This document shows, piece by piece, positions 4,580-64,000 of a stretch of DNA of 64,000 nt (its first letter is position 1; each line of letters begins with the position of its first letter). The stretch covers positions 6,072-70,071 of the forward strand of contig JADHWR010000001.1 of NCBI GenBank assembly GCA_016783355.1. Reading direction: 5' to 3'. The DNA is from Candidatus Omnitrophota bacterium. GTDB lineage: Bacteria; Omnitrophota; Gorgyraeia; Gygaellales; JAHJCI01. Under the pieces are notes generated by a model. The model was not told the origin of the DNA. It searched no databases and worked only from the letters and a program-made list of their open reading frames with translations. A program made the translations under genes and the position numbers.

Positions 4580-7500
4580 CTAAGTTACCTTTTCCATCTG
4601 CGCCTCTCGATGTGCAATAAAGCCGGTTCCTGCAGGAATTAAATGTCCAACAATCACATTTTCCTTCAATCCATATAAAACATCCCGTGCACCACGAGAA
4701 GCAGCATCGGTCAAAACCCGTGTTGTCTCCTGGAAGCTTGCTGCAGAAATAAAGCTATCTGTGCTCAATGATGCCCTGGTAATACCTTGCAACTGTGGTG
4801 TGGCTGAAGCAGGAGTGCCGCCCTTTTTCATCACACGCTCATTCTCGGTTTTAAATCTCAATTTATCCACTAATTCTCCAGGTAAAAATTCTGTATCTCC
4901 AGAGTCTTCTATACGCACTTTCTTCAGAATCTGTCGAATAATCAATTCAACGTGCTTATCACTAATCTGCACCCCTTGTAAACGATAGACTTCCTGAATC
5001 TCATTCAAAAGATACTCTGCAAGTCTTTTGTCTCCACAAATACGCAAGATTTCCTGAAGCACAACTGGTCCATCTGTAAGCTGGTCGCCGGCGCTGACGC
5101 GGTCCCCTTTATAAACGTTGGGGTGCTTACCATGGGGCATAATATACTCACGCTCCATGCCTGTCGGTGAACGGACAATAATTATTCGTTCGCCTTTCTT
5201 GCCTTCTCCAAATTCTACAAATCCATCAATCTCACTAATTATTGCCGGATTCTTTGGTCGGCGTATCTCAAATAATTCGGCAACGCGCGGCAGACCTCCT
5301 GTAATATCATGGGTTTTGGCAATGATGCGTGGGGTCTTCGCTAAACAGGCTCCTGCATTAATCTGCTCGGTATCCTTAACTAAAACATGGGCGCCTACGG
5401 GGAGCGGATAAAGACTGAGCACATCTTCTTTCTCATCTAAAATAACAATCTGAGGATGATATTCTTGTTTATGCTCCATCACTACTCGCTCAGTAACCTT
5501 GGTTACAGGATTAAACTCATCCTCAATACTAACTCCTGGAATTAAATCCTCAAATCTAACCCGGCCAGCTACTTCTGTCAAAATCGGAGAGTTATAAGGA
5601 TCCCAATGGACAAAAGCCATTCCCTTCTCAGTCAAAGTCTTATCAGCAAAAGCAACCAGCCCTCCATAGGGTACGGTATAACGTTCAAGTTCCCGGCCTT
5701 CCTGATCATTAATACTAATTACGCCATTACGATTAAGCACAAGAAATTCTTTGCCCACCCTTACTATTTTTAAGTTATGGTAGGTTAATATGCCTTTGTT
5801 TCTTGATTTTATCGAAGAGCGCTCAATCACACGAGAAGCTGTTCCGCCAATATGAAATGTGCGCATAGTAAGTTGTGTGCCGGGTTCGCCGATACTCTGA
5901 GCAGCAATTATTCCTACTGCCTCGCCTAATTCAACCTGCTTTCCCCGGGCAAGGTCCCGGCCATAACAGGTGGCGCAAATCCCCCTTTCTGCCTCGCAGA
6001 TAAGAACACTGCGTATCCTTATCTTCTCAATACCTAAACGCTCAATAATATCTGCCTTCTCTTCAGTAATCTCTTTGCCTGCCTCAACAATAACCTCATC
6101 AGTAATAATATCAACAATGTTATCGAGGGCAGTCCTTCCCACGATACGCTCGCGAAGAGGTATAACCACCTCATCTCCTTCAATAAGTGCGCTAACTGTA
6201 ATTCCATTAAGTGTACCGCAATCCTTCCTGGTTACAATTATATCCTGAGCAACATCTACCAATCGGCGAGTAAGATATCCTGCATCAGCTGTCTTTAGGG
6301 CTGTATCAGCGAGTCCTTTTCTTGCGCCATGTGTGGAGATAAAATATTCAAGAACGGTTAAACCCTCACGAAAATTTGCTGTAATAGGAGTTTCGATAAT
6401 CTCGCCTGATGGTTTTGCCATCAATCCACGCATTCCGCAAAGCTGCCTCACCTGCAGGCGCGAACCTCTTGCACCAGAATCAGCCATCATAAAGATTGGG
6501 TTAAAGGGTGTCATTTGCGAAAAGAGATAGTCAGTAACCCTATCTGTAGCATGTGTCCAGATATCAACAACACGATTAGATTTTTCTCTCTCTGTAATTA
6601 TGCCGTCTTTATAAAGCGTATCTACTTTGTCAACCTCGTTCTGTGCCTTCTTTATAACCTCTGCTTTTTGTGAGGGAATATGCAAATCCCCAATGGCAAT
6701 CGTGATACCCCCTAAGGTGGCAAATTCAAAGCCTTGTTCTTTTATTTCATCTAACAACTGAATTGTTCGTGCGTGACCAAAGCGTTTGTAGCATTCATCG
6801 ATTATATCGGCAACCAAGAATCTATTTAATTCCCTATTTACAAATCCAAAACCCTCCGGCAGCACTTGATTGAAGATGATTCTTCCCACTGTTGTTGTAA
6901 TTAGCCCTGTTGAGTCTTTAGCCTTTCTCTCATCCAGATCATATACCTTATTGACTTTCGTCTTTATCAATTCATGTAGGTCAATTATCTTATCGTTGTA
7001 CGCAGAGAGTGCCGCCGCAGGCGTGCTAAAGATTAAATCCTTTATCTTGCCGGCAGAGCCTTGCTTGGTAAAATAATTGCAACCCAGAATGATATCCTGT
7101 GTAGGCGATGTAATCGGCCGGCCATTGGCAGGAGAAAACATATTATTAATCGAAAGCATTAAAAGCTTTGCCTCCATCTGTGATTCCAACGACAGGGGGA
7201 CATGCACAGCCATCTGGTCACCATCAAAATCAGCATTAAAAGCGGCACATACCAAGGGATGGATCTTGATTGCCTTGCCCTCAATAAGTCTTGGTTGAAA
7301 TGCCTGCATACTTAAACGATGCAAGGTTGGTGCGCGATTCAAAAGCACGGGATGGTCACTTACAACTTCCTCGAGAATATCCCAAACCTCAACCTTTCCC
7401 CGCTCAACCATTCGGCGTGCCCCCTTAATTGTATGAACAAAGCCTTTCTGGCATAACCTCTTAATAATAAATGGCTCAAATAACTCAACCGCCATCTGCT

Positions 7501-11993: not shown

Positions 11994-12383
11994 TTATTTC
12001 AATTCTACGGTTGCTCCTGTTGCTTCTAATTTCTTCTTTAATTCCTCTGCTTCTTCTTTGGATACGTCCTCTTTTATTGGTTTAGGCGCAGAATCCACTA
12101 AATCCTTAGCCTCCTTCAGGCCAAGACTGGTTACCGCACGAACCTCTTTTATGACAGATATCTTATTGCTGCCTACACTGCTCAATACTACTGTAAATGT
12201 TGTCTTCTCTTCCTCTGCCGCAGCGCCTGCAGTAGTTGCTGCACCAGTATCTGCTGCGCCTGCAACAAGAGGGATATTTCCTGATACACCGAATTTCTCC
12301 TCCAGTGCCTTTACCAACTCGGAAAGCTCTAAAACACTCATTCCTCCAATTGATTCCATCAACTCTTCTACTTTTGTGGCCAT
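11994..12383 (-). CDS. rplL: 50S ribosomal protein L7/L12
   Basis: 129 aa. Has an Ala/Gly-rich hinge and C-terminal [16 protein letters not shown]....[24 protein letters not shown]. Confidence 0.95.
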
Positions 12384-12397
12384 TTTTTACCCCCTTT

Positions 12398-12492
12398 AAT
12401 GAGTCCGCCAAAGTTCGTTGGCGGACGAATTAATCCCGCTGAGTGTGCCAAAATTATAAAATAGAATTTTGGCACATATTACGAAGCGGGAT
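12398..12492 (-). promoter_or_regulatory. Two-hairpin leader element, copy 1 (rplJ-rplL spacer, ends just before the rplL SD)
   Basis: The minus-strand RNA reads AUCCCGCUUCGUAAUAUGUGCCAAAAUUCUAUUUUAUAAUUUUGGCACACUCAGCGGGAUUAAUUCGUCCGCCAACGAACUUUGGCGGACUCAUU, followed by AAAGGGGG-N7-AUG. The architecture matches 56938-57031 and 62985-63085. Confidence 0.7.
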
Positions 12493-12496
12493 AAGT

Positions 12497-15672: not shown

Positions 15673-16326
15673 TTATTCTAAGGCCTTTAAAAGCTCCTCA
15701 CCGAACTCTTTAGCTGCAAATGGACCAGCGGCAGTAATAATATTGCCATCTCTTACTACAGCTCCCCCTGTATAGTTAGCTCCTGCTTGTTGTAACTTCC
15801 CTGCTTCACTTGACCAAACAGTGGCAGATTTACCTTTAAGTAAGCCTGCCTTCGCCAGGATTACAGGAGCAATACAAATTGCGCCAACGATTTTATTTGC
15901 GGCAGAGGCATCCAATGCAATCTTATGGGCTTTGGCATTATCCCAATAAACGCTTGCACCACTGCCACCTATAAAAACCACAGCATCAAAATCAAAAGGA
16001 CTTAGCTCTTCAATCGTTAAATCAGGCTTTATTTTTGCTCCTAACATGCCCTGGGCATAATCTTGCGTAAAAGCAGCAACCTTAACTTCACAGCCTGCAT
16101 CCTCTAAAACCTGTTTGGGAATAAGTAGCTCTTCATCTCTGAAATTTTTCTGCGCAATAATCATCACTACTTTTTTCATCTCTTGGCCTCCTGCCTGCCC
16201 CGTTAGAAACTTTGTTTTTAACGGGGCCTGCGCCCAAACAACCTTTAAGAAAAAGGCACAAAAAAATCCAACCATTAAGCAAAAAACTGTTGTCCATTTC
16301 TGAAGTAGAACAAGATTCTTATTCAA
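15673..16326 (-). CDS. DJ-1/PfpI family protein (N-terminal hydrophobic extension; alternative start at MKKVVMII)
   Basis: Has the DJ-1 core VMIIAQKNFRDEEL and the nucleophile-elbow-like AICIAP. The N-terminal 50 aa contain the 29-bp TIR element. Confidence 0.8.
   Translation of the reverse strand: MNKNLVLLQKWTTVFCLMVGFFCAFFLKVVWAQAPLKTKFLTGQAGGQEMKKVVMIIAQKNFRDEELLIPKQVLEDAGCEVKVAAFTQDYAQGMLGAKIKPDLTIEELSPFDFDAVVFIGGSGASVYWDNAKAHKIALDASAANKIVGAICIAPVILAKAGLLKGKSATVWSSEAGKLQQAGANYTGGAVVRDGNIITAAGPFAAKEFGEELLKALE
16198..16226. mobile_element. 29-bp minimal TIR element (CCCCGTTAGAAAC-ttt-GTTTTTAACGGGG) flanked by cctg/cctg
   Basis: The sequence reads cctg|ccccgttagaaactttgtttttaacgggg|cctg. 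It translates as PLKTKFLTG inside the DJ-1 ORF. Confidence 0.7.
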
Positions 16327-26267: not shown

Positions 26268-26913
26268 TTAAAACATCCCAAATCATCTTAACCTGTTTTT
26301 TTGTCTCAGATTTCGTCCCACTATTATCAATAACAAAATCAGCTAAATTTAGCTTCTTTTTTAATGGCATCTGCAAATTTATGCGCTTTTTAATTTCCGA
26401 AAGGCAAAATCCCTTTTTTTTAAGGCGCAATTTTTGAATGTCTGACCTTGCCCTTACGGCAATTATCTTATCCACGATTCTCGCCAGTCCTGCTTCGATT
26501 AATAAGGGTGCATCAATTATAATAAACTTAAAATTTCGGGCCTGCTGAATCTGTATTTTAATTTCCTTAATTATTCCTGGATGCAGAATTTCGTTGAGCT
26601 TCTTTAGGGAATGCTTATTTCTGAAAGCACTCTTAGCTAACCTTTTTCGATTAATCTGTTGATTCCTGGAAAGTATCCTTTCCCCAAATGCCGCAAGAAC
26701 CCGCCTGTAAGCCCCGTTCGAAGTAAGGCGCCCAAGGCGACTGCCCCGCCAAATTCCGTGGCGGGGACTTCTAACGGGGTAAGCCTTTTTCTTGGGCTCG
26801 ATTAACTGATGCGCAATCCTATCTGCATCAATAATCTGAGCGCCTAATTGTTTAAAATAGTGCGCGCACGTCGTCTTCCCTGTGCCAAAACTGCCGGTAA
26901 TACCAACAATCAT
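26227..26913 (-). CDS. coaE: dephospho-CoA kinase, carrying a 24-codon element insertion
   Basis: [15 protein letters not shown] has the P-loop at the likely start (26913, an ATGA overlap with the glgA stop). The [11 protein letters not shown] and LHP-type motifs are present. Confidence 0.88.
26712..26779. mobile_element. 68-bp TIR element in frame inside coaE, flanked by taag/taag
   Basis: The sequence reads taag|ccccgttcgaagt aaggcgcccaaggcgactg ccccgccaaattccgtggcgggg acttctaacgggg|taag. It encodes [23 protein letters not shown]. Confidence 0.85.
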
Positions 26914-28295: not shown

Positions 28296-30964
28296 TTAAT
28301 CTCCTCCATCTCTAACCAATTCTTACCCTTCTTTATTACTACCTTTATGGGAACAGAAAGGGCTAAGGCATTCTCCATCTCATAAGATATCATCTCAATT
28401 GCCCTCTGCAATTGCCCGTTCGGTATCTCAAAAATAAGTTCATCGTGAATTTGCAGGAGGAGCTTCGCCGAAAGCGTTCTTTCCTCAATCTTCTGATATA
28501 TCTTAATCATCGCCATCTTAATTAAATCTGCTGCCGAGCCTTGGATGGATGAATTTACTGCCTGCCTTTCGGCAAATGCACGAACTGCGGCATTCTGATG
28601 ATTAATGTCAGGGAGATAGCGATGGCGACCTAAAATAGTTGTTACAAAATTGTCTTTTTTTGCCTTTTCAATCTGCCTGGCGATATAATCTTTTACTCTG
28701 GGATACCTTAAAAAATAGGCATCAATAAAGCGAGTTGCCTCCTCCCTTGAAATTCCTAATTCCCTTGCTAAACCAAAGGAAGATAGACCATAAATAATTC
28801 CAAAATTTATGCGCTTTGCTACTTCTCGCATCTGATCATTGACAATAGAATCCTCTGTGCCATAAACTAAAGAGGCAGTGGCACGATGTATGTCTTTGCC
28901 TTGCGAAAAAGCATCAATCAGCACCTTCTCGCCTGATAAATGTGCCAGAACCCTTAATTCTACCTGAGAATAATCAAAAGAGACCAAAAAATTATCCTCG
29001 CAACTCGTGATGAAAGCCTTTCGTATCTTGCGCCCTAACTCTGTCTTAATCGGTAGATTTTGCAAATTAGGATTAGAGGAGCTCAGTCTTCCCGTCTGTG
29101 TTCCTGTTTGATTGAAGAATGTATGAATGCGCAGGGTTTTTTTATCTGCCAGTTCCATTAAGGCATCGATATAAGTAGATTTTATTTTACAAAGCATACG
29201 ATATTCCAATAAAATTTTTGGTAAGGGATGCTGGCTTGCTAAGACAGCAAGAACCTCCTCATCGGTAGAGGCGCCTGTCTTTTTCTTTTTTATCACCGGC
29301 AGTTTTAATTTCTCAAAAAGAACCTGACGTAGCTGTAAGGGTGAGTTGATATTAAACGGCCCACCAGCAAGATGATAAATTTTACTGACCAGGCCTTTGC
29401 GCTTTTCTTCAATTTCAATGCCCAAGGCTTTAAGAAACTCTAAATCAAGCTTTATACCCTCTAATTCCATCTGCGCTAAAACAGGAATCAAGCGAATCTC
29501 TAAGTCGCAAAAGATGCGAAAGCTATCTTTAAGCTTTAGTTCTTTCTCTAAAACCGACTTAAGTGTTCCAATAACAACACAAACCTCAAGTGGACTTATC
29601 TTTCCTGCCCCGTTCGAAGTCCCCGCCGTAGGCGGGGCAGTCGCCCCGGGCGTCTTACTTCGAACGGGGCCTGCATCCAAAATTCTCTTCAGATAATCCC
29701 AGCACAGGCTCTCAAGACTATAATCAGACCGGGACGGATTCAAAAGATAAGCAGCAATCATCGTATCAAAACCTAACCCTTCTAGGGCGATATTATGCCG
29801 GGCTAATCGCAAAAAGATATCTTTTAGATTGTGGCCGATTTTCTTAATCTTTGGGTCTCTAAGGACAGGTTCAATGCTCTTTAAGGAGCCTTTCTCTAAT
29901 TCTAAAAAAGAATCACTCTCTGGAAGATAAACTGTCAACCCCTCCTCATTCATATAGAGAATCAACTCACCTGCCTGCCTAAACTGATCAATCCCGGCAA
30001 CCTGCCTGTTGGCACTTCGACGGAGTTTATCCCGAGCGAAGTCGAGGGACTCAGTGCTAGCACTCCGACTTCGCTCAGTGCCAACCCTGAGCTTGTCGAA
30101 GGGTTGCTCAGGTAAATCTTTAAGAAATTTTTTAAATTCTAACTCACGAAAGATTTCATAAAGATTTCTATAGTCAGGCTTCTTTATCTTTAAACTTTGC
30201 GCATCAAATTCTATATCTAAATCTGTCCTTAATTGTGCAAGATAATGACATAGTTTTATTTGCTCAATCTTTTCTTTCAAGCGAGAACGAAGCTTTTGTT
30301 CTTTTATCTGATCCAAATTCAATAAGAGATTTTCCAGAGACTTAAATTTATCCAGGAGCTTGGTGGCGGTCTTTTCTCCTATGCCAGGAACACCCGGGAT
30401 ATTATCAGCTGTATCTCCGGCAAGAGCAATAAAGTCAGCAATTCTGCCGGGTAAAAATCCGTATTGGCGCTTAACCCCTGCCACATCATAAATTATCTTT
30501 TTGTCTTTATGAGGATGCAGAACAATAACTCCCTCATCCACTAATTGCAAGATATCCTTATCAGCGCTGACAATCATTATTGTAAAATCCTTCTCTTTTG
30601 CCTTCCTGGTTAATGTCGCAATAACATCGTCTGCTTCAAAGCCCTCCTTCTCAAATATATTAATTCCAAAGGCCTTGATTATCTTTTTAATGTAAGGCAG
30701 TTGAGTCACTAAATCCGCAGGCATAGGAGGACGTTGTATCTTGTAACGCGCAAATTCTTTTTGGCGAAATGTGTGCCTTGAGACATCAAAACATACACCC
30801 ATATACTGCGGATTTATCTCTTTTAAAACCTTATTCAGAAAATTCACAAAGCCATAAATAGCATTGGTACAAAGACCGTAAGAGGTCGCAAGCCCCCTTA
30901 TGGCATAATAGGCGCGGTAACAGATGCCGTTGGCATCAATAAGTACTACTTGGGCTTTATCCAT
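28292..30964 (-). CDS. polA: DNA polymerase I, carrying two different in-frame repeat insertions
   Basis: 890 aa. Has a 5' nuclease domain (GIPGVPGIGEKTA), pol motif A (SFDYSQVELRVLAH), motif B (RR.AK..NFGIIYG) and motif C (QIHDELIFE). Confidence 0.95.
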   Translation of the reverse strand: MDKAQVVLIDANGICYRAYYAIRGLATSYGLCTNAIYGFVNFLNKVLKEINPQYMGVCFDVSRHTFRQKEFARYKIQRPPMPADLVTQLPYIKKIIKAFGINIFEKEGFEADDVIATLTRKAKEKDFTIMIVSADKDILQLVDEGVIVLHPHKDKKIIYDVAGVKRQYGFLPGRIADFIALAGDTADNIPGVPGIGEKTATKLLDKFKSLENLLLNLDQIKEQKLRSRLKEKIEQIKLCHYLAQLRTDLDIEFDAQSLKIKKPDYRNLYEIFRELEFKKFLKDLPEQPFDKLRVGTERSRSASTESLDFARDKLRRSANRQVAGIDQFRQAGELILYMNEEGLTVYLPESDSFLELEKGSLKSIEPVLRDPKIKKIGHNLKDIFLRLARHNIALEGLGFDTMIAAYLLNPSRSDYSLESLCWDYLKRILDAGPVRSKTPGATAPPTAGTSNGAGKISPLEVCVVIGTLKSVLEKELKLKDSFRIFCDLEIRLIPVLAQMELEGIKLDLEFLKALGIEIEEKRKGLVSKIYHLAGGPFNINSPLQLRQVLFEKLKLPVIKKKKTGASTDEEVLAVLASQHPLPKILLEYRMLCKIKSTYIDALMELADKKTLRIHTFFNQTGTQTGRLSSSNPNLQNLPIKTELGRKIRKAFITSCEDNFLVSFDYSQVELRVLAHLSGEKVLIDAFSQGKDIHRATASLVYGTEDSIVNDQMREVAKRINFGIIYGLSSFGLARELGISREEATRFIDAYFLRYPRVKDYIARQIEKAKKDNFVTTILGRHRYLPDINHQNAAVRAFAERQAVNSSIQGSAADLIKMAMIKIYQKIEERTLSAKLLLQIHDELIFEIPNGQLQRAIEMISYEMENALALSVPIKVVIKKGKNWLEMEEIK
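29608..29669. mobile_element. 62-bp TIR element in frame inside polA, flanked by cctg/cctg
   Basis: The sequence reads cctg|ccccgttcgaagt ccccgccgtaggcgggg cagtcgccccgggcgtctt acttcgaacgggg|cctg. It encodes PVRSKTPGATAPPTAGTSNGA. Confidence 0.85.
30011..30108. repeat. Palindromic 'FDKLRV'-type repeat inserted in frame in polA
   Basis: It contains gagcgaagtcg...agtgctagcact...cgacttcgctc and accctgagcttgtcgaaggg. The same words occur in the tandem arrays at 31007-31200. It encodes PFDKLRVGTERSRSASTESLDFARDKLRRS. Confidence 0.75.
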
Positions 30965-31006: not shown

Positions 31007-31071
31007 CCTCGACTTCGTCCCTCGACTTCGTCCCTCGACTTCGTCCCTCGACTTCGTCCCTCGACTTCGCT
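31007..31071. repeat. 13-bp tandem repeat x5 (cctcgacttcgtc)
   Basis: Four perfect copies plus one variant, read directly from the sequence. Confidence 0.9.
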
Positions 31072-31200
31072 CGGGACGACCCTGAGCTTGTCGAAGGGTC
31101 GCTCGGGACGACCCTGAGCTTGTCGAAGGGTCGCTCGGGACGACCCTGAGCTTGTTGTCGAAGGGTCGCTCAGTGTCAATCCTGAGCTTGTCGAACGGAT
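31072..31200. repeat. 32-bp tandem repeat x3 plus a partial copy (cgggacgaccctgagcttgtcgaagggtcgct); each unit has a GACCCT...AGGGTC hairpin
   Basis: Units lie at 31072, 31104 and 31136 (the third has a 3-bp tgt insertion). A partial copy follows as cctgagcttgtcgaacgg. Confidence 0.9.
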
Positions 31201-39282: not shown

Positions 39283-40440
<1,158 letters not shown>

Positions 40441-43287: not shown

Positions 43288-45378
43288 CTATAGTTTTCTT
43301 GCTATCTTCTCAATTTTATAGCCTTCCATTATATCGCCTATTTTATAATCAGAAAAATTACCTATGGATATGCCGCACTCATAACCTTCAGATACCTGAG
43401 AAACCTCATCTTTAAAACGCCGAAGATTGCTAATCTTTCCGCTAAAGATAGTAGTGTTGTCTCTGATTATATCTATATTGAGCGTGCGCAAGATCTTACC
43501 CTTAGTTATAGTACACCCCGCCACAACACCACTTCGCGAGAGATTAAAAACCTGCTTCACGCGTGCCTGTCCAAAAGATACCTTTTTTATCTTTGGGCTT
43601 AACAACCCTTCTAAAGCCGCCTTTATCTCCTCGACTAATTCATAAATTATATTGTATGTCCTTACCTCCACCTGCTCTTTTTTAATTAATTCCTTTGCTC
43701 GCTCTTCTATATTTATATGAAAACCCAAGATTAGCGCATCAGAGACAGACGCCAGCATTACATCTGAAGTGTTAATTAAGCCCACTCCTTTATGGGTTAT
43801 CTTAAATTTTACCTCTTTTGTCTCTAATTTTATTAGAGAATCCCGCACCGCCTCTAATGAGCCGAATGTGTCTGCTTTAATAATAATCTTCAGCTCTTTA
43901 AGAACACCGTTTTTTATTTCCTGATGTAAATCCTCCAGCGAAAACCGATGTGGTGAAATATTCCTTTTTTCCTTTGTCTCGCGCAGCGAGATAAGTGCTC
44001 TTGCCCCTTTCTCGTCCTTGACAACAAAAAATCTCTCTCCTGCCTCAGGCACGGATTCAAAACCTAAAATTCCCACAGGCTGACTGGCAGTAGCTTCCTC
44101 AACTCTCTGGCCACAGTCATTAAATATTGCCTTTACCTTTGCTAAGTTCTTCCCCGCAACAAGTAGATCATTAAGATGTAATTTTCCATTCTGCACCAAT
44201 AAAGTTGCCAGAGGACCCCTGTTTGGGTCCTGTCTTGCCTCAATAACAACACCCCTTGCTATCTGATTATAATCTGCTTTCAATTCTAACATTTCTGCCT
44301 CTAAAAGAATCATCTCTAATAATTCATCTATGCCCTGACCGGTTTTGGCAGAAACCTCTACCGTTACGGTCTTGCCTTGCCACTCCTCAGGAACTAAACC
44401 AATATCAGCAAGTTGCTTCTTTACCCTATCTACGTTAGCCTGAACTCGATCAACTTTATTTATGGCGACAATTATAGGAACCTCAGCATCTCGGGCATGG
44501 TTAATTGCCTCAATTGTCTGAGGCATAACACCATCATCAGCAGCAACCACTAAAACAACAATATCTGTAATCTGTGCGCCCCGTGCACGCATTGCCGTAA
44601 ATGCCTCATGACCGGGTGTATCCAAAAATGCAATCTTACCCTTATCTAAATTAACCTCATATGCACCGATGTGCTGGGTTATGCCTCCATGTTCAAAATC
44701 AACGACCTTTGTCTTTCTAATCATATCCAAAAGGGAGGTCTTACCATGGTCAACATGACCCATAAATGTTACTACGGGTGGACGAACATTTAAATCCTGA
44801 GGCTGGCTTGATACCTCATGTAAGGAAAGCAGGCGTTCTTCTAAAGAGGGAGCCTGCTTGACTTTAAAGCCAAAATTCTCACAAACCTGCTCTACTTCAT
44901 CTTTTCCTAAAGATTGGTTAATGTTGGCTAGGATTTTTAACTTTAAAAGTTCCTGCATTAGCTGCGAGAGTTTAATTTGAAGCTTAACCGCTAAATTCTT
45001 AACAGAAATAGGGAAATCTAATTCTAATACCTTAGCTTGTGGCGCCTCTTCAACCAAAATTGCTTGTAGCTGCTGGGGTTGAGGCTCTAAGGTCTTTGCT
45101 TGAATTTTAGACTTGCGGGAGACTCTTCTCTTTGGTTTAGGGGCTATTTCTTTCCTCTTGATTTGCTTTTTGCCTGGCTCTTTTCGTAGGACCGCAGGCT
45201 TTTTTGCTTTCCTTGCCCCGTTTGAAATCCCTCGCCTAACGGCGGGGGCAGCTACCTTTGGTGTCTTACTTCGAACGGGGTTTGGCTTTGTAGAGGAAGC
45301 CCTTAAGCGAGTCTTTGAAGCCTTTCTCACTTTAGTTTTTAATGCTTTTGGTTTCTTAGGTTTTTTTATCTTTTTCAT
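43288..45378 (-). CDS. infB: translation initiation factor IF-2, carrying a 23-codon element insertion in the basic N-terminal region
   Basis: 696 aa. Has the G domain [21 protein letters not shown] and NKVD. Confidence 0.94.
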   Translation of the reverse strand: MKKIKKPKKPKALKTKVRKASKTRLRASSTKPNPVRSKTPKVAAPAVRRGISNGARKAKKPAVLRKEPGKKQIKRKEIAPKPKRRVSRKSKIQAKTLEPQPQQLQAILVEEAPQAKVLELDFPISVKNLAVKLQIKLSQLMQELLKLKILANINQSLGKDEVEQVCENFGFKVKQAPSLEERLLSLHEVSSQPQDLNVRPPVVTFMGHVDHGKTSLLDMIRKTKVVDFEHGGITQHIGAYEVNLDKGKIAFLDTPGHEAFTAMRARGAQITDIVVLVVAADDGVMPQTIEAINHARDAEVPIIVAINKVDRVQANVDRVKKQLADIGLVPEEWQGKTVTVEVSAKTGQGIDELLEMILLEAEMLELKADYNQIARGVVIEARQDPNRGPLATLLVQNGKLHLNDLLVAGKNLAKVKAIFNDCGQRVEEATASQPVGILGFESVPEAGERFFVVKDEKGARALISLRETKEKRNISPHRFSLEDLHQEIKNGVLKELKIIIKADTFGSLEAVRDSLIKLETKEVKFKITHKGVGLINTSDVMLASVSDALILGFHINIEERAKELIKKEQVEVRTYNIIYELVEEIKAALEGLLSPKIKKVSFGQARVKQVFNLSRSGVVAGCTITKGKILRTLNIDIIRDNTTIFSGKISNLRRFKDEVSQVSEGYECGISIGNFSDYKIGDIMEGYKIEKIARKL
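45216..45280. mobile_element. 65-bp TIR element in frame inside infB (flanks cttg / tttg)
   Basis: The sequence reads cttg|ccccgtttgaaat ccctcgcctaacggcggggg cagctacctttggtgtctt acttcgaacgggg|tttg. It encodes PVRSKTPKVAAPAVRRGISNGA. Confidence 0.8.
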
Positions 45379-46549
45379 TTAATGGAATTGTCTTTTTTGC
45401 CTCACTAATTAATTTCTTTGCTTTCTTCTGCCCCATTCCTTTGACCTTGCATAAATCATCTATAGCCGCCCCTGCCAGATCAATAACACTCTTAAAACCT
45501 GCAGCATTTAAATTTTCTAAGAGTTTTTCTCCAACGCCGGAAAGATTTATTAAATCATCCTTGGGAGGTGCCTCCTTTAATCTCTGCTTTTCCACGTCTT
45601 CTGGGCTGCGAATATCTAACTCCCAGCCAACAAGACGACTGGCTAAACGAACATTTTGACCGTTTCTGCCAATTGCTAAAGATAACTGATCTCTATTAAC
45701 AATAACCTCCGCTCTCTGATTTGCTTTATCTAAGCATACCTCTATAATCTGGGCAGGAGAAAGGGCAGCAATAATATAATCTTTCATATTTTCACTATAG
45801 CGAACAATATCAATCTTTTCCCCTCTTAATTCATTAACAACGTTTTTCACGCGGCTACCCCGCATTCCTACGCAGGCACCGACAGAATCGACCCTCTCAT
45901 CCTTTGAATAAACAGTTATCTTCGTGCGTTCGCCTGGCTGGCGAGCAATTGCTCTGATTTCAACAATGCCCTCATAAATCTCAGGAACCTCCAATTCAAA
46001 GATTTTCTTTACAAAATTAGAGTGACTACGGGAAAGAATAATTTGTGCACCCCTGACTTGCTTACTCACCTCTAAAACATAAGTCCGGATACGTTCGCCT
46101 TGACGAAATGTCTCGTTTGGACACTGATGGCGACGTGGCAAAATGCCCTCACCTTTACCTAAGAGATCGATAATGATGCTATTTCTTTCAAAGCGGTACA
46201 CTGTTCCACTAACAATCTCACCTACCCTGTCTTGGAATTCAATAAATATGTTCTCTTTTTCTGCCTCACGAATCTTCTGAATAATAACCTGTTTTGCTGT
46301 CTGAGCAGCAATGCGCCCAAAATCGAGGTCCGTGATTTTCTTACCTTCATATGTTGCCTGAATCTCTCCATTGTTTGGGTTAATGACAACTTGAATGTCA
46401 TGACTCGATTCAAGATTCAATGTTTTCCTAATCGCACTGACCATTGCCGTCTCCACCGCATTAATTAAAACCTCTTTCTTTATTCCTTTTTCTCGTTCAA
46501 TCTGTTCTAATATTGCCAATAATTCCTTAGACATCTCTCTATTCTCCAT
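45356..46549 (-). CDS. nusA: transcription termination/antitermination factor NusA
   Basis: 397 aa. Has the N-terminal L..L..IE.EKGI, S1 and KH domains (ACVG.RGSRV..V..EL.GEKIDIV) and IG..GQNVRLAS.L.GW..DI. Confidence 0.94.
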   Translation of the reverse strand: MENREMSKELLAILEQIEREKGIKKEVLINAVETAMVSAIRKTLNLESSHDIQVVINPNNGEIQATYEGKKITDLDFGRIAAQTAKQVIIQKIREAEKENIFIEFQDRVGEIVSGTVYRFERNSIIIDLLGKGEGILPRRHQCPNETFRQGERIRTYVLEVSKQVRGAQIILSRSHSNFVKKIFELEVPEIYEGIVEIRAIARQPGERTKITVYSKDERVDSVGACVGMRGSRVKNVVNELRGEKIDIVRYSENMKDYIIAALSPAQIIEVCLDKANQRAEVIVNRDQLSLAIGRNGQNVRLASRLVGWELDIRSPEDVEKQRLKEAPPKDDLINLSGVGEKLLENLNAAGFKSVIDLAGAAIDDLCKVKGMGQKKAKKLISEAKKTIPLNEKDKKT

Positions 46550-46637
46550 GTTCTTTGTCTAAATATGGGTAAATATGGGGACGGTTCTCGCTATCTTATT
46601 GTAATACAACAAGATAAAAATAAATTTTCGCCACAAA

Positions 46638-46797
46638 GTCGCCACAAAAACGTTGACGACCCGCCAAAGTATTGTGGCGGGATTTGCACCAGAAAGTCGC
46701 CACAAAGCGTTGGCGACCCGCCAAAGTATTATGGCGGGATTTGCACCAGAAAGTCGCCACAAAGCGTTGGCGACCCGCCAAAGTATTATGGCGGGAT
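46638..46797. repeat. 57/58-bp tandem repeat x3, each unit made of two hairpins (GTCGCCA-N8-TGGCGAC and CCGCCA-N8-TGGCGG), in the rimP-nusA spacer
   Basis: Units start at 46638, 46696 and 46753. Further CCGCCAA...TTGGCGG hairpins follow to about 46850. One inverted copy lies at 63563-63607. Confidence 0.9.
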
Positions 46798-46853
46798 TGG
46801 CGCATCCGCCGGTTCTTATTGGAGGCGAATCCGCCAATTATTTTGGCGGAAGC

Positions 46854-47312
46854 TCAAAATTCCAACTTCGCCTTACTAATATTATCCCAGGGTGTCTCTA
46901 GGACCCCCTTTTCGGTTTCCATAATCAATAAATTCTGCTCCACACAAGAAATCACACCTCTAGCCTCCCACTTTCCTTGCTCAGGCTGTTTGAAAAAGAC
47001 CTTTATCTTCTTTTTGATACATCGTCTAAAATCATCTAAATTTAGCAAAGGCCGATCCAAACCAGGAGAGGCAACTTCTAATGTATAAGCATCCTCAATA
47101 ATATTCTCTTCATCTAAAATCTGAGCTATTTCATTATTTAAAGATGCGCACTTATTTAAAGTTACCCCACCCTCTGCCTTATCTACTAAAATACGAAGGG
47201 TTGAGTCTTTTCTTCTGTATTGATAACTCAGATCCACAAGAAAGAGATTTTGCCCTGCCAAATAATTGCTAACTATCTCTCGTAATCTGGACTCTATCTC
47301 GTGTTTGTCCAT
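46854..47312 (-). CDS. rimP: ribosome maturation factor RimP
   Basis: 152 aa. It sits upstream of nusA and has the DUF150-like pattern L.V.VD...G.V.L..C...N..I...LD......Y.LEVASPGLDRPL. Confidence 0.88.
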   Translation of the reverse strand: MDKHEIESRLREIVSNYLAGQNLFLVDLSYQYRRKDSTLRILVDKAEGGVTLNKCASLNNEIAQILDEENIIEDAYTLEVASPGLDRPLLNLDDFRRCIKKKIKVFFKQPEQGKWEARGVISCVEQNLLIMETEKGVLETPWDNISKAKLEF

Positions 47313-56232: not shown

Positions 56233-56922
56233 CTATTTTATATTCTCCACCGGCTCTTCAAGTTCGATAATTTCAATTTCCTCCTCCCCTTCTAAAACTG
56301 TTGCTGGTTCTTCTAAATCTTTTGTCTCTTTGACCTTAATCATCTTCGGCAGAATTACTACTTCCACACGACGATTTAGCTGCTTACCTTCTTTTGTGTC
56401 ATTAGAGGCTACAGGCTGATACTCACCGTAGCCAACTGCCGAAGCACGCTGGGGCGAAATTCCCTTTTTATCAACAAGATAATGCAATGTACTTAAAGCT
56501 CGCGCTGTGGATAATTCCCAATTCGACTTCCAACCAGAATATCTAATTGGTTCGTTATCAGTATGTCCTTCAATACCAATAAGATATTGCGACACATTTT
56601 CTTTTAAAACACGGGCGACCTTATCTAAAATTGGAAAGGATTCTGAGCGTAGCTTCGCTTTGCCCGAATCATACAAGATATCTGCCAAAAAGGTAATCAC
56701 CAAACCTCTTTCAGCCATCTCCAACCGTACTTCTTTACGAGCAATCTCCTCTTTGAGACGCTGCTGAAGCAACTGGTGGACGTTTCTTAAATATCCTATT
56801 TCTTGCGAAAGTTCATCGATCTTCTCAATATCTGAACGTCTACCCGCTTGAAATTTAAACATGCAGCCCGCTAAACTTACTGTCATAAAAAATACAGCCA
56901 ATACTAATGCTTTTTTCTTCAT
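56233..56922 (-). CDS. OmpA/MotB-domain lipoprotein
   Basis: 229 aa. Has a lipobox-like LAGC and an OmpA C-like domain (F..G.A.L......L..VA..L.......I.IEGHTDN.P........NWELS.ARA......L......NRRVEVVI). Confidence 0.85.
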   Translation of the reverse strand: MKKKALVLAVFFMTVSLAGCMFKFQAGRRSDIEKIDELSQEIGYLRNVHQLLQQRLKEEIARKEVRLEMAERGLVITFLADILYDSGKAKLRSESFPILDKVARVLKENVSQYLIGIEGHTDNEPIRYSGWKSNWELSTARALSTLHYLVDKKGISPQRASAVGYGEYQPVASNDTKEGKQLNRRVEVVILPKMIKVKETKDLEEPATVLEGEEEIEIIELEEPVENIK

Positions 56923-56937
56923 CGCTCCTACCTCCTC

Positions 56938-57031
56938 AATGAGTCCGCCAAAGTTCGTTGGCGGACGAATTGATCCCGCCGAATGCTCTAAAATTATCAG
57001 GGAGAATTTTAGAGCAGTTTATGAGGCGGGG
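56938..57031 (-). promoter_or_regulatory. Two-hairpin leader element, copy 2 (immediately upstream of the OmpA-like gene SD)
   Basis: The plus strand reads aatgagtccgccaaagttcgttggcggacgaattgatcccgccgaatgctctaaaattatcagggagaattttagagcagtttatgaggcgggg. On the minus strand it is followed by CUCAUUGAGGAGG-N8-AUG. Confidence 0.7.
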
Positions 57032-57116
57032 TATGTACATTATTTGGGTCATTCCATAAGTCTCGTCCTTACTTATTTTAAATTATATCTATACCTTCGT
57101 CAATATCTATAAATTT

Positions 57117-62972: not shown

Positions 62973-62984
62973 TGTGACCTCCTC

Positions 62985-63085
62985 AATGAGTCCGCCAAAG
63001 TTCGTTGGCGGACGAATTGATCCCGCCGAATGCTCTAAAATTATCCCCTGCGGGGAGAATTTTAGAGCAGCTTATGAGGCGGGAT
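62985..63085 (-). promoter_or_regulatory. Two-hairpin leader element, copy 3 (between tRNA-Gly and the clpP SD)
   Basis: The minus-strand RNA reads AUCCCGCCUCAUAAGCUGCUCUAAAAUUCUCCCCGCAGGGGAUAAUUUUAGAGCAUUCGGCGGGAUCAAUUCGUCCGCCAACGAACUUUGGCGGACUCAUU, followed by GAGGAGG-N5-AUG. Confidence 0.7.
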
Positions 63086-63116
63086 ATACATTATTATAGT
63101 AATCTCTTAAAACTAA

Positions 63117-63302: not shown

Positions 63303-63371
63303 CAAAACCCCATCAGCAAAAACAAGTTCACTGAGCCACCCGCGACTCGAACGCGGCACACCCGCCTTAAA

Positions 63372-63697
63372 CATTTTTGTTAACTGTATGTCGCCATACA
63401 GATCAGACTATCCCATCCCCCTCACGCTTATCCTTAAAAAAGAAAGCGATGGGGGTCTCGATTATAGTCGTTGAACCTTCCCAGTACTTATTTGCTAAGA
63501 TAATTTCTGATTCAAATAAATGCCGGGCTTGGCTGCAGATTGTCTGCATTTAAGAATTTTTACCCCCGCCACAATACTTTGGCGGGTCGCCAATGCTTTG
63601 TGGCGACAGACATAAAGGGTATCTTAAAATACTCAGACTTTCCCGCAATTTACGAGATTCTCACTATTGATTTCTCAATAATGGCCCCTTTTTCGCG
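63372..63697 (-). ncRNA. Group I-like intron (no ORF), with a repeat module inserted at the P5 tip
   Basis: It starts after an exon U and ends in G. Hand-folded pairings are listed here:
- P1: GCCCU/GGGGC.
- P2: CAUUAUUGA-GAAA-UCAAUAGUG.
- P3: UCUCG/CGAGA, followed by J3/4 UAAAUU.
- P4: GCGGG/UCUGC, followed by J4/5 AAA.
- P5: GUCUG/CAGAC.
- The conserved AGCCAAGCC word.
- P6: CCCGG.../...CUGGG.
- P7: GACUAU/AUAGUC.
- P8: CCCCC.../...GGGGG.
- P9: UGUAUG-GCGA-CAUACA. Confidence 0.72.
63563..63607. repeat. Single inverted copy of the 46.6-kb double-hairpin repeat unit, embedded in the intron
   Basis: The plus strand reads ccccgccacaatactttggcgggtcgccaatgctttgtggcgac. This is the reverse complement of the gtcgccacaaagcgttggcgacccgccaaagtattatggcggg unit at 46696-46738. 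Confidence 0.85.
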
Positions 63698-64000
63698 AGG
63701 GCGGTGCTCTACCAGATGAGCTAGTGGCCCATTTCTATCTTAAATTTGTAATTATTGCCAAAGAACAAAATCTATATCTATTTCTGATAAGATTTTAATA
63801 ATAAATCTAAGATTTTTCTCTTTGAAATTTTTCTTTTCCAAATTCCATTCTTTCTGCTCGCATTTATATAAATTCTAGGCGAAAAATTTATCTCTTTAGC
63901 AAATCTTAATAAGTTTTCCCTTTTGGAGATTTCTATCTCAGTGCCCCTTTTATTAATTCTGCTCTTTATACCAAAACCATTTAATAAATCTTTTATCTGT

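Follow-up and report, generated by a model that had tools for sequence, protein, structure and literature searches.

Contig JADHWR010000001.1 of Candidatus Omnitrophota bacterium (assembly GCA_016783355.1) carries, within the 64,000-nt stretch analysed here (positions 6,072 to 70,071 of the forward strand; hereafter the window), the genes proS, rimP, nusA and infB in that order, with every long open reading frame (ORF) of the window on the minus strand. Between rimP and nusA lies a spacer which, given a nusA start at MSKELL (46534), measures 319 nt and is occupied by a tandem array of small double hairpins, and a further copy of the same double hairpin sits within a group I intron. While giving an account of the array and the intron copy, this report describes the dispersed family to which both belong and argues that the module is probably a small, non-autonomous, selfish palindromic DNA repeat, of a kind with the repetitive extragenic palindromic (REP) sequences, the bacterial interspersed mosaic elements (BIMEs) and REP doublets forming hairpins (REPINs) built from them, and the Rickettsia palindromic elements (RPEs).

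The array was delimited by Tandem Repeats Finder at 46624-46798, with a period of 57, 3.1 copies and 94 % matches. Its constant part is a 43-nt core, GTCGCCAcaaagcgtTGGCGAC-CCGCCAaagtattaTGGCGGG, of which exact copies stand on the plus strand at 46696-46738 and 46753-46795, preceded by a degenerate first copy (46638-46681) that is 44 nt long and thus 1 nt longer than the others. The core recurs with two mismatches (41/43) on the minus strand at 63565-63607. The number of core matches expected by chance, from 100 dinucleotide-preserving shuffles, is zero, and hairpins of the form CGCCA-N6-10-TGGCG number 13 in the window against 0.21 expected. The first-pass annotation, which had three tandem units of about 57 bp filling the rimP-nusA spacer and extra hairpins beside them, is borne out on both points, the extra hairpins lying at 46805-46829 (imperfect) and 46830-46850. 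Its proposal that a 57-bp module is common to the spacer and the intron stands for the 43-nt core but not for the 57-nt unit, which the two sites do not share. From nusA to rimP, the junction is made up as follows.

45356..46534, minus strand: nusA, start MSKELL (46534) with its own GGAG Shine-Dalgarno sequence; database protein of 392 aa
46628..46637, plus strand: host ('outer') hairpin bracketing the array, 5' strand TCGCCA and 5' loop half CAAA
46638..46681, plus strand: core copy 1, 44 nt, with one extra A and one G>A in the first stem (nhmmer E = 2.9e-14)
46682..46695, plus strand: inter-unit linker ATTTGCACCAGAAA
46696..46738, plus strand: core copy 2, 43-nt double hairpin (inverted doublet), exact match; two-hairpin fold of -22.1 kcal/mol
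46739..46752, plus strand: second inter-unit linker, 14 nt, same sequence as the first
46753..46795, plus strand: core copy 3, exact match
46796..46803, plus strand: host hairpin closing the array, 3' loop half AT and 3' strand TGGCG
46805..46829, plus strand: imperfect family hairpin TCCGCC-13 nt-GGCGAA, whose mismatch is a G.U on the transcribed (minus) strand
46830..46850, plus strand: terminal family hairpin TCCGCCAattatttTGGCGGA, 3 nt past the rimP stop codon
46854..47312, minus strand: rimP, the gene upstream of the interrupted junction (Pfam RimP_N and RimP_C)

In the linker ATTTGCACCAGAAA, the two loop halves of the host hairpin, the 3' one first, are fused through a collapsed outer stem. 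By analogy with an insertion site in a PAC2-family gene described below, the composite element in the window spans 46628-46850, or about 223 nt, and its terminal hairpin TCCGCCAattatttTGGCGGA is almost the same as the second hairpin of the element at loci L051 and L010. The native spacer left beside the composite is about 93 nt, comparable to the 81 nt found in the relative L039. Within this native part, at 46592-46616 and about 60 nt upstream of the nusA start, lies a near-perfect A+T-rich palindrome, ATCTTATTGTAATACAACAAGAT, possibly with a role as operator or within a promoter.

The nearest available relatives of the organism are 66-69 % identical to it in NusA. As had been claimed, rimP and nusA normally lie side by side: this holds in four syntenic Omnitrophota relatives (proS-rimP-nusA-infB). 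Their rimP-nusA gaps are 4, 81, -4 and -4 nt, and no family hairpin occurs in about 60 kb of their sequence. In two of the relatives rimP and nusA overlap by ATGA, which implies that translational coupling between the two genes has been lost in the window organism.

The second site in the window is an intron-containing tRNA-Lys(UUU) gene. The Rfam group I intron model RF00028 matches at about 63384-63728 on the minus strand with 88-93 bits (92.6 in one scan), and alignment to the Rfam consensus places the module in an 82-nt insertion in the P5 loop (L5). The minimum-free-energy fold closes the arm with UUAAGA/UCUUAA and UACCC/GGGUA and pairs both halves of the module into one long hairpin. Alignment and fold thus agree with the earlier placement of a copy at the tip of the P5 arm behind a UACCC/GGGUA closure. 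The features concerned are these.

63332..63730, minus strand: tRNA-Lys(UUU) gene, intron between positions 33 and 34; ARAGORN on the conceptually spliced exons returns tRNA-Lys(ttt)
63372..63697, minus strand: group I intron, 326 nt, from a splice-site reading with P1 CCCU/GGGG, P10 UUU/AAA and omega-G at 63372
63550..63627, minus strand: P5 extension with the core; closing stems UUAAGA/UCUUAA and UACCC/GGGUA; 5' linker UUUAUGUCU of 9 nt
63565..63607, minus strand: core copy in the group I intron, 41/43 against the array core, sense in the intron RNA

To our knowledge, the tRNAs that usually carry group I introns in bacteria are those for Leu, fMet, Ile and Arg, and tRNA-Lys is not one of them. 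No other group I intron was found in 148 kb of related loci. ARAGORN missed the intron-containing tRNA-Lys in the unspliced sequence. On the minus strand at 63778-64000, and continuing past the window (L043:850-1695), is a free-standing ORF, 281 aa long, with a LAGLIDADG_3 match (Pfam E = 1.4e-9); frr adjoins it, and 47 nt separate its end from the intron-containing tRNA downstream. Where the window has a tRNA cluster upstream of clpP, relatives have tig-clpP, and for this reason the tRNA/endonuclease block looks inserted. The intron copy of the module is most simply a tolerated passenger on P5.

Several familiar identities were considered for the array and set aside. A known RNA family found no support in Rfam 15, which gave nothing for the module at the gathering threshold in the window, only noise (E >= 1) in 46400-47000, nothing relevant on the spacer even at E <= 10, no family overlapping the module in 17 related loci, and nothing in a set of 20 related loci. 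The hammerhead-like core CUGANGA...GAAA of a self-cleaving ribozyme was absent by eye from both strands of the unit, in agreement with Rfam. Five of the six frames of the array are open, yet three tested ORFs had no Pfam match and the module is non-coding elsewhere, so that a protein-coding array was also rejected. Matches to intrinsic terminators or promoters are no commoner than in shuffled sequence; a single weak terminator-like site lies in the degenerate unit (46667-46653, minus strand), and the intact units have no T run. A CRISPR array was dismissed on the identity of the 14-nt linkers, which leaves no spacer diversity.

Beyond this contig, the sequence covered comprised 8-kb pieces of other genomes. 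With one genome scanned per GTDB species, a strict core pattern found seven loci in at least four genomes, four of them on different contigs of one metagenome-assembled genome (MAG), Omnitrophica RIFCSPLOWO2_12_FULL_50_11, and the others in two further Omnitrophota MAGs and one MAG labelled Planctomycetales. A looser pattern found 25 loci in metagenome contigs; the core as such is put at about 20 metagenome loci. The pattern had no match in IMG/VR, and a viral origin was discarded on that ground. Two loci (L017 and L018) were excluded as probable chance coding matches, their contigs being of 67-74 % G+C with every frame open, and a divergent hairpin cluster (L011/L033) was left out of the analysis. 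The flanks of the remaining loci are unrelated, but at most of them the core comes with two features that the pattern did not require, a common outer bracket and one more family hairpin. Together with the precise insertions described below, these loci uphold the portability claimed in the first-pass annotation, for which a module unique to the two sites of the window would have been fatal: it is present in other Omnitrophota genomes and in metagenomes.

The copies fall into subfamilies. In that of the window, the core stands between CCGCCA-CAAA and GAT-TGGCGG and is followed by a hairpin TCCGCCA-N7-8-TGGCGGA; the CCGCCA-CAAA...GAT-TGGCGG bracket is also found at L002, L007, L010, L026 and L030, and in an empty form at L051. 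Other subfamilies have the core inside a 5-bp stem, TCCGC/GCGGA, and their 5' linker is 9-12 nt long; the intron copy reproduces this geometry with the stem UACCC/GGGUA. Copies of one subfamily in one genome, including the array and intron copies, differ at 0-2 of 16 loop positions, and the cores of L003 and L005, on different contigs of one MAG, are identical over 43/43 positions; between genomes, a mean of 5.8 of 16 loop positions differ. The same core is common to genomes of 35 % to 64 % G+C. In the MAG MHFT01 (L001:6560-6760 and L006:2710-2900), it is nested in a palindromic element of about 170-200 nt with terminal inverted repeats GTACGTCATTCTGAGRCGGC, and this larger element is a different chassis for the same core.

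Most copies lie in short spacers between co-directional genes, and a number of them lie in or beside genes for stable RNAs. One is situated in a ribosomal RNA spacer (16S-tRNA-Ile-tRNA-Ala-[module]-23S; L023), others upstream of tRNA-Pro (L002) and of tRNA-Phe (L004/L028/L031), and others again just 3' of 6S RNA genes (L007 and L030). A second copy at L002 is within a partial tRNA-Pro copy beside a small GIY-YIG gene. This region (L002:302-880) has an 80-aa GIY-YIG ORF (Pfam E = 1.4e-16) flanked by the intact tRNA-Pro and, upstream, by an incomplete duplicate of the 5' half of that gene. Both tRNA-Pro pieces have a module copy of their own, and the region looks like a small tRNA-associated mobile islet. 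At L021, the module lies 17 nt past a flavin mononucleotide (FMN) riboswitch aptamer and precedes its terminator; the riboswitch is upstream of ribBA (L021:1765-2080), and the family element of about 90 nt between aptamer and intrinsic terminator raises the question of whether it still works.

Individual loci also record how the element sits in its target. At L013, a 73-nt element interrupts the transposase gene of an insertion sequence (IS); once exactly those 73 nt are taken out, a 290-aa ORF is regained in which a single rve domain match runs unbroken over the junction, and the boundaries are unambiguous, with no target-site duplication. The second copy at L002 is an 87-90-nt element with 3 nt of boundary ambiguity. 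In a PAC2-family gene (L010) and a GvpL/GvpF gene (L026), the element lies in frame within the protein, and the two inserts share a reading frame (...TKSPQxxGDPPKHxGG..., or more loosely ...TKSPQxxGDPPKxxGG...); GvpL/GvpF thereby has 33 additional residues inside its domain. At 321 aa, most PAC2 orthologues have nothing at the site, and others have 14-42 extra residues, mostly in multiples of seven (21 nt), built from hairpin-encoded peptides. The PAC2 gene (L010:869-977, L051:1198-1340, L052:1690-1790; P0241-P0321) has this single hypervariable site, FYYWKN/K..NDLII with the slash at the site, and the 0-42 extra residues, which are of several hairpin-encoded kinds, always start with PATK.

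Among PAC2 orthologues that are about 97 % identical in protein outside the site, an empty form of 321 aa can be set against forms of 335 and 349 aa with insert, and three states are thereby defined. The empty state reads GAAGAAC/AAAGCC; the second has 42 nt more, consisting of the two hairpins CCCGCCAcaaagatTGGCGGG and TCCGCCAataatttTGGCGGA; and the third has a further 42 nt, namely the double-hairpin core, set into the first hairpin's loop with CAAA on one side of it and GAT on the other. Target-site duplication is nil, or amounts to 1 nt of ambiguity. It follows from these states that the 'outer stem' of the window subfamily is a host hairpin of the same family, in the loop of which the core nests. 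The core is thus a discrete 42/43-nt unit, and in the intron it occurs by itself, within the loop of a hairpin that does not belong to the family. Wherever an empty allele could be defined, the insertion showed no target-site duplication, and the only direct repeat of some length, one of 13 nt, was seen at L004/L028.

As an inverted doublet, the core can fold either as two hairpins or as one long hairpin. It is an imperfect palindrome centred on its ACC, with the second hairpin close to the reverse complement of the first (exactly so in L026), and the bricks each pair over 7 bp around an 8-nt loop. Core folds range from -22 to -34 kcal/mol. In the array core the two-hairpin fold, at -22.1 kcal/mol, is the minimum; the intron core has a two-hairpin fold of -22.1 kcal/mol and a long hairpin of -24.3 kcal/mol as its minimum; and in L026, where the core is a perfect palindrome, the corresponding values are -22.1 and -34.5 kcal/mol, the long hairpin again being the minimum. 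The spacer RNA as a whole folds at -117.5 kcal/mol (z = -5.9 against shuffled versions). The array matches the plus strand and the intron copy the minus strand, both being transcribed from the minus strand, as are all genes here, so that the array is antisense in the rimP-nusA mRNA and the intron copy is sense in the intron RNA; two RNAs of this organism therefore carry complementary versions of the module. Across the family, about ten copies are sense and about seven antisense to local transcription.

The observations to be accounted for are dispersal, lineage-restricted presence, precise insertion, nesting, occurrence in both orientations and in-frame residence in protein genes. The double hairpin is of a known repeat kind, acting at the level of DNA in either orientation, and its portable unit is the 42/43-nt core, usually nested in the loop of a hairpin of the same family. 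In the mechanism envisaged, the basic brick would be a hairpin of about 21 nt, NNCGCCA-N7-8-TGGCGNN, two of which would form the core as an inverted doublet. This core would move as a discrete copy-and-paste unit, without target-site duplication, by insertion into unpaired DNA, typically the loop of a pre-existing hairpin, whether of the same family or unrelated, as in the intron L5. Copies would then persist wherever an extra stem-loop is tolerated, namely in operon spacers, the leaders, trailers and spacers of stable RNAs, a riboswitch linker, a peripheral intron loop and protein surface loops, the last because blocks of 21, 42 and 84 nt have no stop codons in the read-through frame. At rimP-nusA, a composite of about 223 nt would have landed 3 nt past the rimP stop codon, with the core and linker subsequently triplicated in place by slippage or unequal recombination. 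The enzyme would probably act in trans on single-stranded DNA, recognizing hairpins, and be of the HUH/Y1 type (a REP-associated tyrosine transposase, RAYT, or an IS200-like enzyme); this type is favoured because no duplication is made and hairpin loops are targeted.

It is scarcely credible that the array is an assembly artefact, whether by collapse or by expansion, a concern raised with the first-pass annotation. All short-read assemblies of the same organism do break here, so that the internal structure is evidently hard to assemble: in other assemblies, contigs coding exactly this RimP end just before the array (L008 and L009), contigs coding this NusA begin inside or just after it (L035 and L036), and the sequence is identical up to the array and then breaks within it. 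However, the independent L035 runs through 1.6 units and the degenerate unit into nusA, with a sequence identical to the window; the intron copy is supported by an independent 24.8-kb ENA contig with 100 % identity over 1028 nt, including intron and module; and the family is present in many other assemblies. The array is real, and doubt is limited to the exact copy number, since short reads cannot span it and a count of three needs long reads. Nor are the modules at all likely to be double-stranded DNA sites, with CGCCA/TGGCG as half-sites, for a regulator or nucleoid protein controlling nusA. The half-sites are regular enough (CGCCA-N8-TGGCG-N3-CGCCA-N8-TGGCG, three times just upstream of nusA), but the same sequence is found in an intron, coding regions, an rRNA spacer and a disrupted transposase gene, and relatives with the same operon are without the array. 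A somewhat better, though still improbable, alternative is that nothing moved: hairpin clusters would arise in place by slippage or hairpin-primed duplication of 21-nt bricks and be homogenized by gene conversion, the intron and spacer copies being convergent or converted products. The inserts at the PAC2 hot spot, mostly in multiples of 21 nt and with several different fillings at the same site, would fit such a process, as would the window array, itself a local tandem expansion, and short direct repeats such as TCGCCACAAAG x1.9 at element edges. It accounts poorly for near-identical 43-nt cores with unrelated flanks 16.8 kb apart in the window, for the complete identity of L003 and L005 despite their different contigs, for a 73-nt element set cleanly into a transposase ORF with no family sequence around it, and for the same two-hairpin chassis in different genes of different genomes.

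The leading competitor, although itself unlikely, is a structured RNA that serves the host, as an RNase III or exonuclease-barrier site or as a protein-binding three-way junction, and that was recruited time and again beside stable RNAs and within operons, its spread being due to selection for that function rather than to selfish mobility. Many copies are found in or beside structured RNAs (intron L5, 16S-23S spacer, tRNA leaders, the linker of an FMN riboswitch and the trailers of 6S RNAs); an outer stem persists although its sequence differs (CCGCCA, CCACCA, TCCGC and UACCC); and the spacer RNA folds far better than shuffled sequence. Against this, the two window copies are oppositely oriented to transcription and the overall ratio is about 10:7, the four helices reuse CGCCA/TGGCG with no covariation, one copy disrupts a transposase gene and two lie in protein-coding sequence, close syntenic relatives are entirely without the element, and Rfam has no counterpart for it. 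Several points do weigh against a selfish DNA repeat, however. Two hint at constraint at the level of RNA: all five or six copies inside stable-RNA transcripts are sense, and in four of four cases imperfect stems have their G.U on the transcribed strand, a pattern explained equally well by a C>T bias on the non-template strand. Since the inner stems were set by the search pattern, their conservation across genomes is uninformative. The 64-kb window has only two module loci. Insertion and deletion are not separable in every case, and local duplication of 21-nt bricks could lie behind some of the variation at the PAC2 site. As for the enzyme, tblastn with IS608 TnpA, IS200 TnpA and the Escherichia coli RAYT (with hand-typed queries) gave only E >= 1 in about 350 kb, and Pfam found no Y1_Tnp domain in 31 neighbouring ORFs, scans that are partial relative to whole genomes; the neighbouring ORFs gave housekeeping or defence genes only. 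The sequence examined contained no IS whose ends would match those of a parent; the one IS found, of the rve type at L013, is a victim of insertion and not a parent. A selfish palindromic DNA repeat nevertheless remains the probable reading, for which the evidence of modular, nested insertion is unusually clean.

Among known systems, the closest parallels are with REP/BIME and REPIN-RAYT systems of E. coli and Pseudomonas (Bertels & Rainey; PMC3116915, PMC3337134), which are likewise short imperfect palindromes in transcribed non-coding spacers, in either orientation. As in REPINs, the unit is an inverted doublet able to form one long hairpin, presence is lineage-restricted with copies most alike within a genome, and there is no target-site duplication where an empty allele is definable. 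The ordered tandem doublets with fixed linkers (three units, with identical 14-nt linkers) also resemble REP/BIME arrays, and among the clustered arrangements in Pseudomonas fluorescens SBW25, tandem repeats of REPIN doublets are the most frequent (PMC3337134). Unlike REP/BIME sequences, the present family has no GTAG head, with neither GTAG nor CTAC beside any copy and a first hairpin that starts with GTCG as part of its stem, and it is not strictly extragenic, being in frame in PAC2 and GvpL/GvpF genes and within the transposase ORF of L013. It differs from REPINs, further, in bricks of only about 21 nt, in the nesting of the core in loops of other family hairpins, in copies within protein-coding genes, an intron and a riboswitch linker, and in the sharing of one core across 35 % to 64 % G+C. 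It is not filed as a REPIN because no RAYT was found in a partial search, nor as a miniature inverted-repeat transposable element (MITE) because there is neither a consistent target-site duplication nor, in the sequence examined, a parental IS.

RPEs, which have been reported in RNA genes too, are comparable in that palindromes lie in frame in unrelated protein genes with orthologues that have no insert, in their presence in non-coding DNA as well, and in the small genomes of the bacteria concerned. They are set apart by size, at about 100-150 bp against the 21-, 42- and 84-nt modules here, which become nested and grow step by step at a single hot spot. What marks RPEs out is the insertion of palindromes in frame (PMC10969869). 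MITEs such as Correia, ERIC and Nezha are likewise small, non-autonomous inverted repeats in operon spacers that are able to alter mRNA structure; unlike the present family, they have consistent target-site duplications (here, a 13-nt direct repeat at one locus only) and are typically far longer, and they have parental ISs with matching ends, of which none was found here in the sequence examined. Mitochondrial double-hairpin elements and GC clusters are found between genes, in introns and in the variable parts of genes for RNAs and proteins. Those of Allomyces and yeasts (see also PMC4478555) are also tiny G+C-rich modules in an A+T-richer genome, but they are organellar, unrelated in sequence and phylogenetically remote. 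The P5 copy, finally, has an analogue at the level of tolerance. In the tRNA-Leu group I intron of Nostoc, heptanucleotide repeats in P6b arise by local slippage; there, too, a peripheral stem-loop tolerates repetitive extra sequence with the catalytic core untouched, whereas the repeat in L5 is a genome-dispersed module.

The window contains other repeats. A 'leader' repeat of about 110 nt (12390-12496, 56930-57036 and 62977-63087) lies directly upstream, on the minus strand, of three genes: an ORF at 11994-12383, which, judging from gene order and size, may be rplL, an OmpA-family ORF (56233-56922) and clpP. It consists of a family-type hairpin GTCCGCCA-N8-TGGCGGAC, a long hairpin with compensatory changes between copies (GCCAAAATT/AATTTTGGC versus CTCTAAAATT/AATTTTAGAG) and a GGAGG ribosome-binding site. 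Other assemblies break at it (L044 and L045), and it could be a mobile cassette of the 5' untranslated region. The likeness to the module's hairpin that had been remarked upon is real but generic, amounting to a CCGCCA/TGGCGG stem with AAGT (nhmmer E ~0.1). At 31007-31198, two tandem arrays adjoin, a 13-mer CCTCGACTTCGTC x4.8 and a 32-mer x3.9; the tRNA-Pro(cgg) called by ARAGORN within the latter (31068-31153, plus strand, opposite to every gene) is probably false, as the Rfam tRNA model gives no support. A second palindromic repeat family, GCCCCGTTCGAAGTAAG.../GCCCCGTTAGAAA..., has copies at 26706-26750, 29631-29675, 45245-45283, 16193-16232 and 39862-39901, and one of these copies falls within infB, in the variable part near the N-terminus, perhaps as a further palindromic insertion in frame.

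For the organism, the element probably uncouples the translation of rimP from that of nusA, and the structured block (-117 kcal/mol) could be an exonuclease barrier, an RNase III entry or cleavage site, or a weak attenuator ahead of nusA. The family also accounts for unexpected gaps within operons that are otherwise closely coupled, rimP-nusA among them, for length polymorphism of proteins (PAC2 and GvpF) and of a catalytic intron, and for the tendency of short-read assemblies of these genomes to break at such sites; for annotation, ORFs in the array are not to be read as genes. Its copies at the P5 tip of a group I intron, in a riboswitch linker and at an operon junction amount to a natural experiment on how much extra structure such places tolerate, and the PAC2 site, with empty, two-hairpin and nested-core states defined to the nucleotide and without duplication, makes the mechanism of insertion testable. 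A bolder and rather doubtful proposition is that the 42-nt double hairpin ranks among the smallest discrete mobile units of bacteria, with a dedicated and hitherto undescribed mechanism aimed at hairpin loops, which might work on single-stranded DNA or, conceivably, on RNA that is then reverse-transcribed. If that were so, a module that nests in itself, invades a group I intron, a riboswitch linker and an rRNA spacer, and adds peptide loops to proteins in 7-residue steps would be a general generator of RNA and protein insertions in the Omnitrophota. As a probable REPIN/RPE-like repeat, of which no description from this phylum was found in the literature searched, it documents such a system in an uncultivated phylum of small cells.

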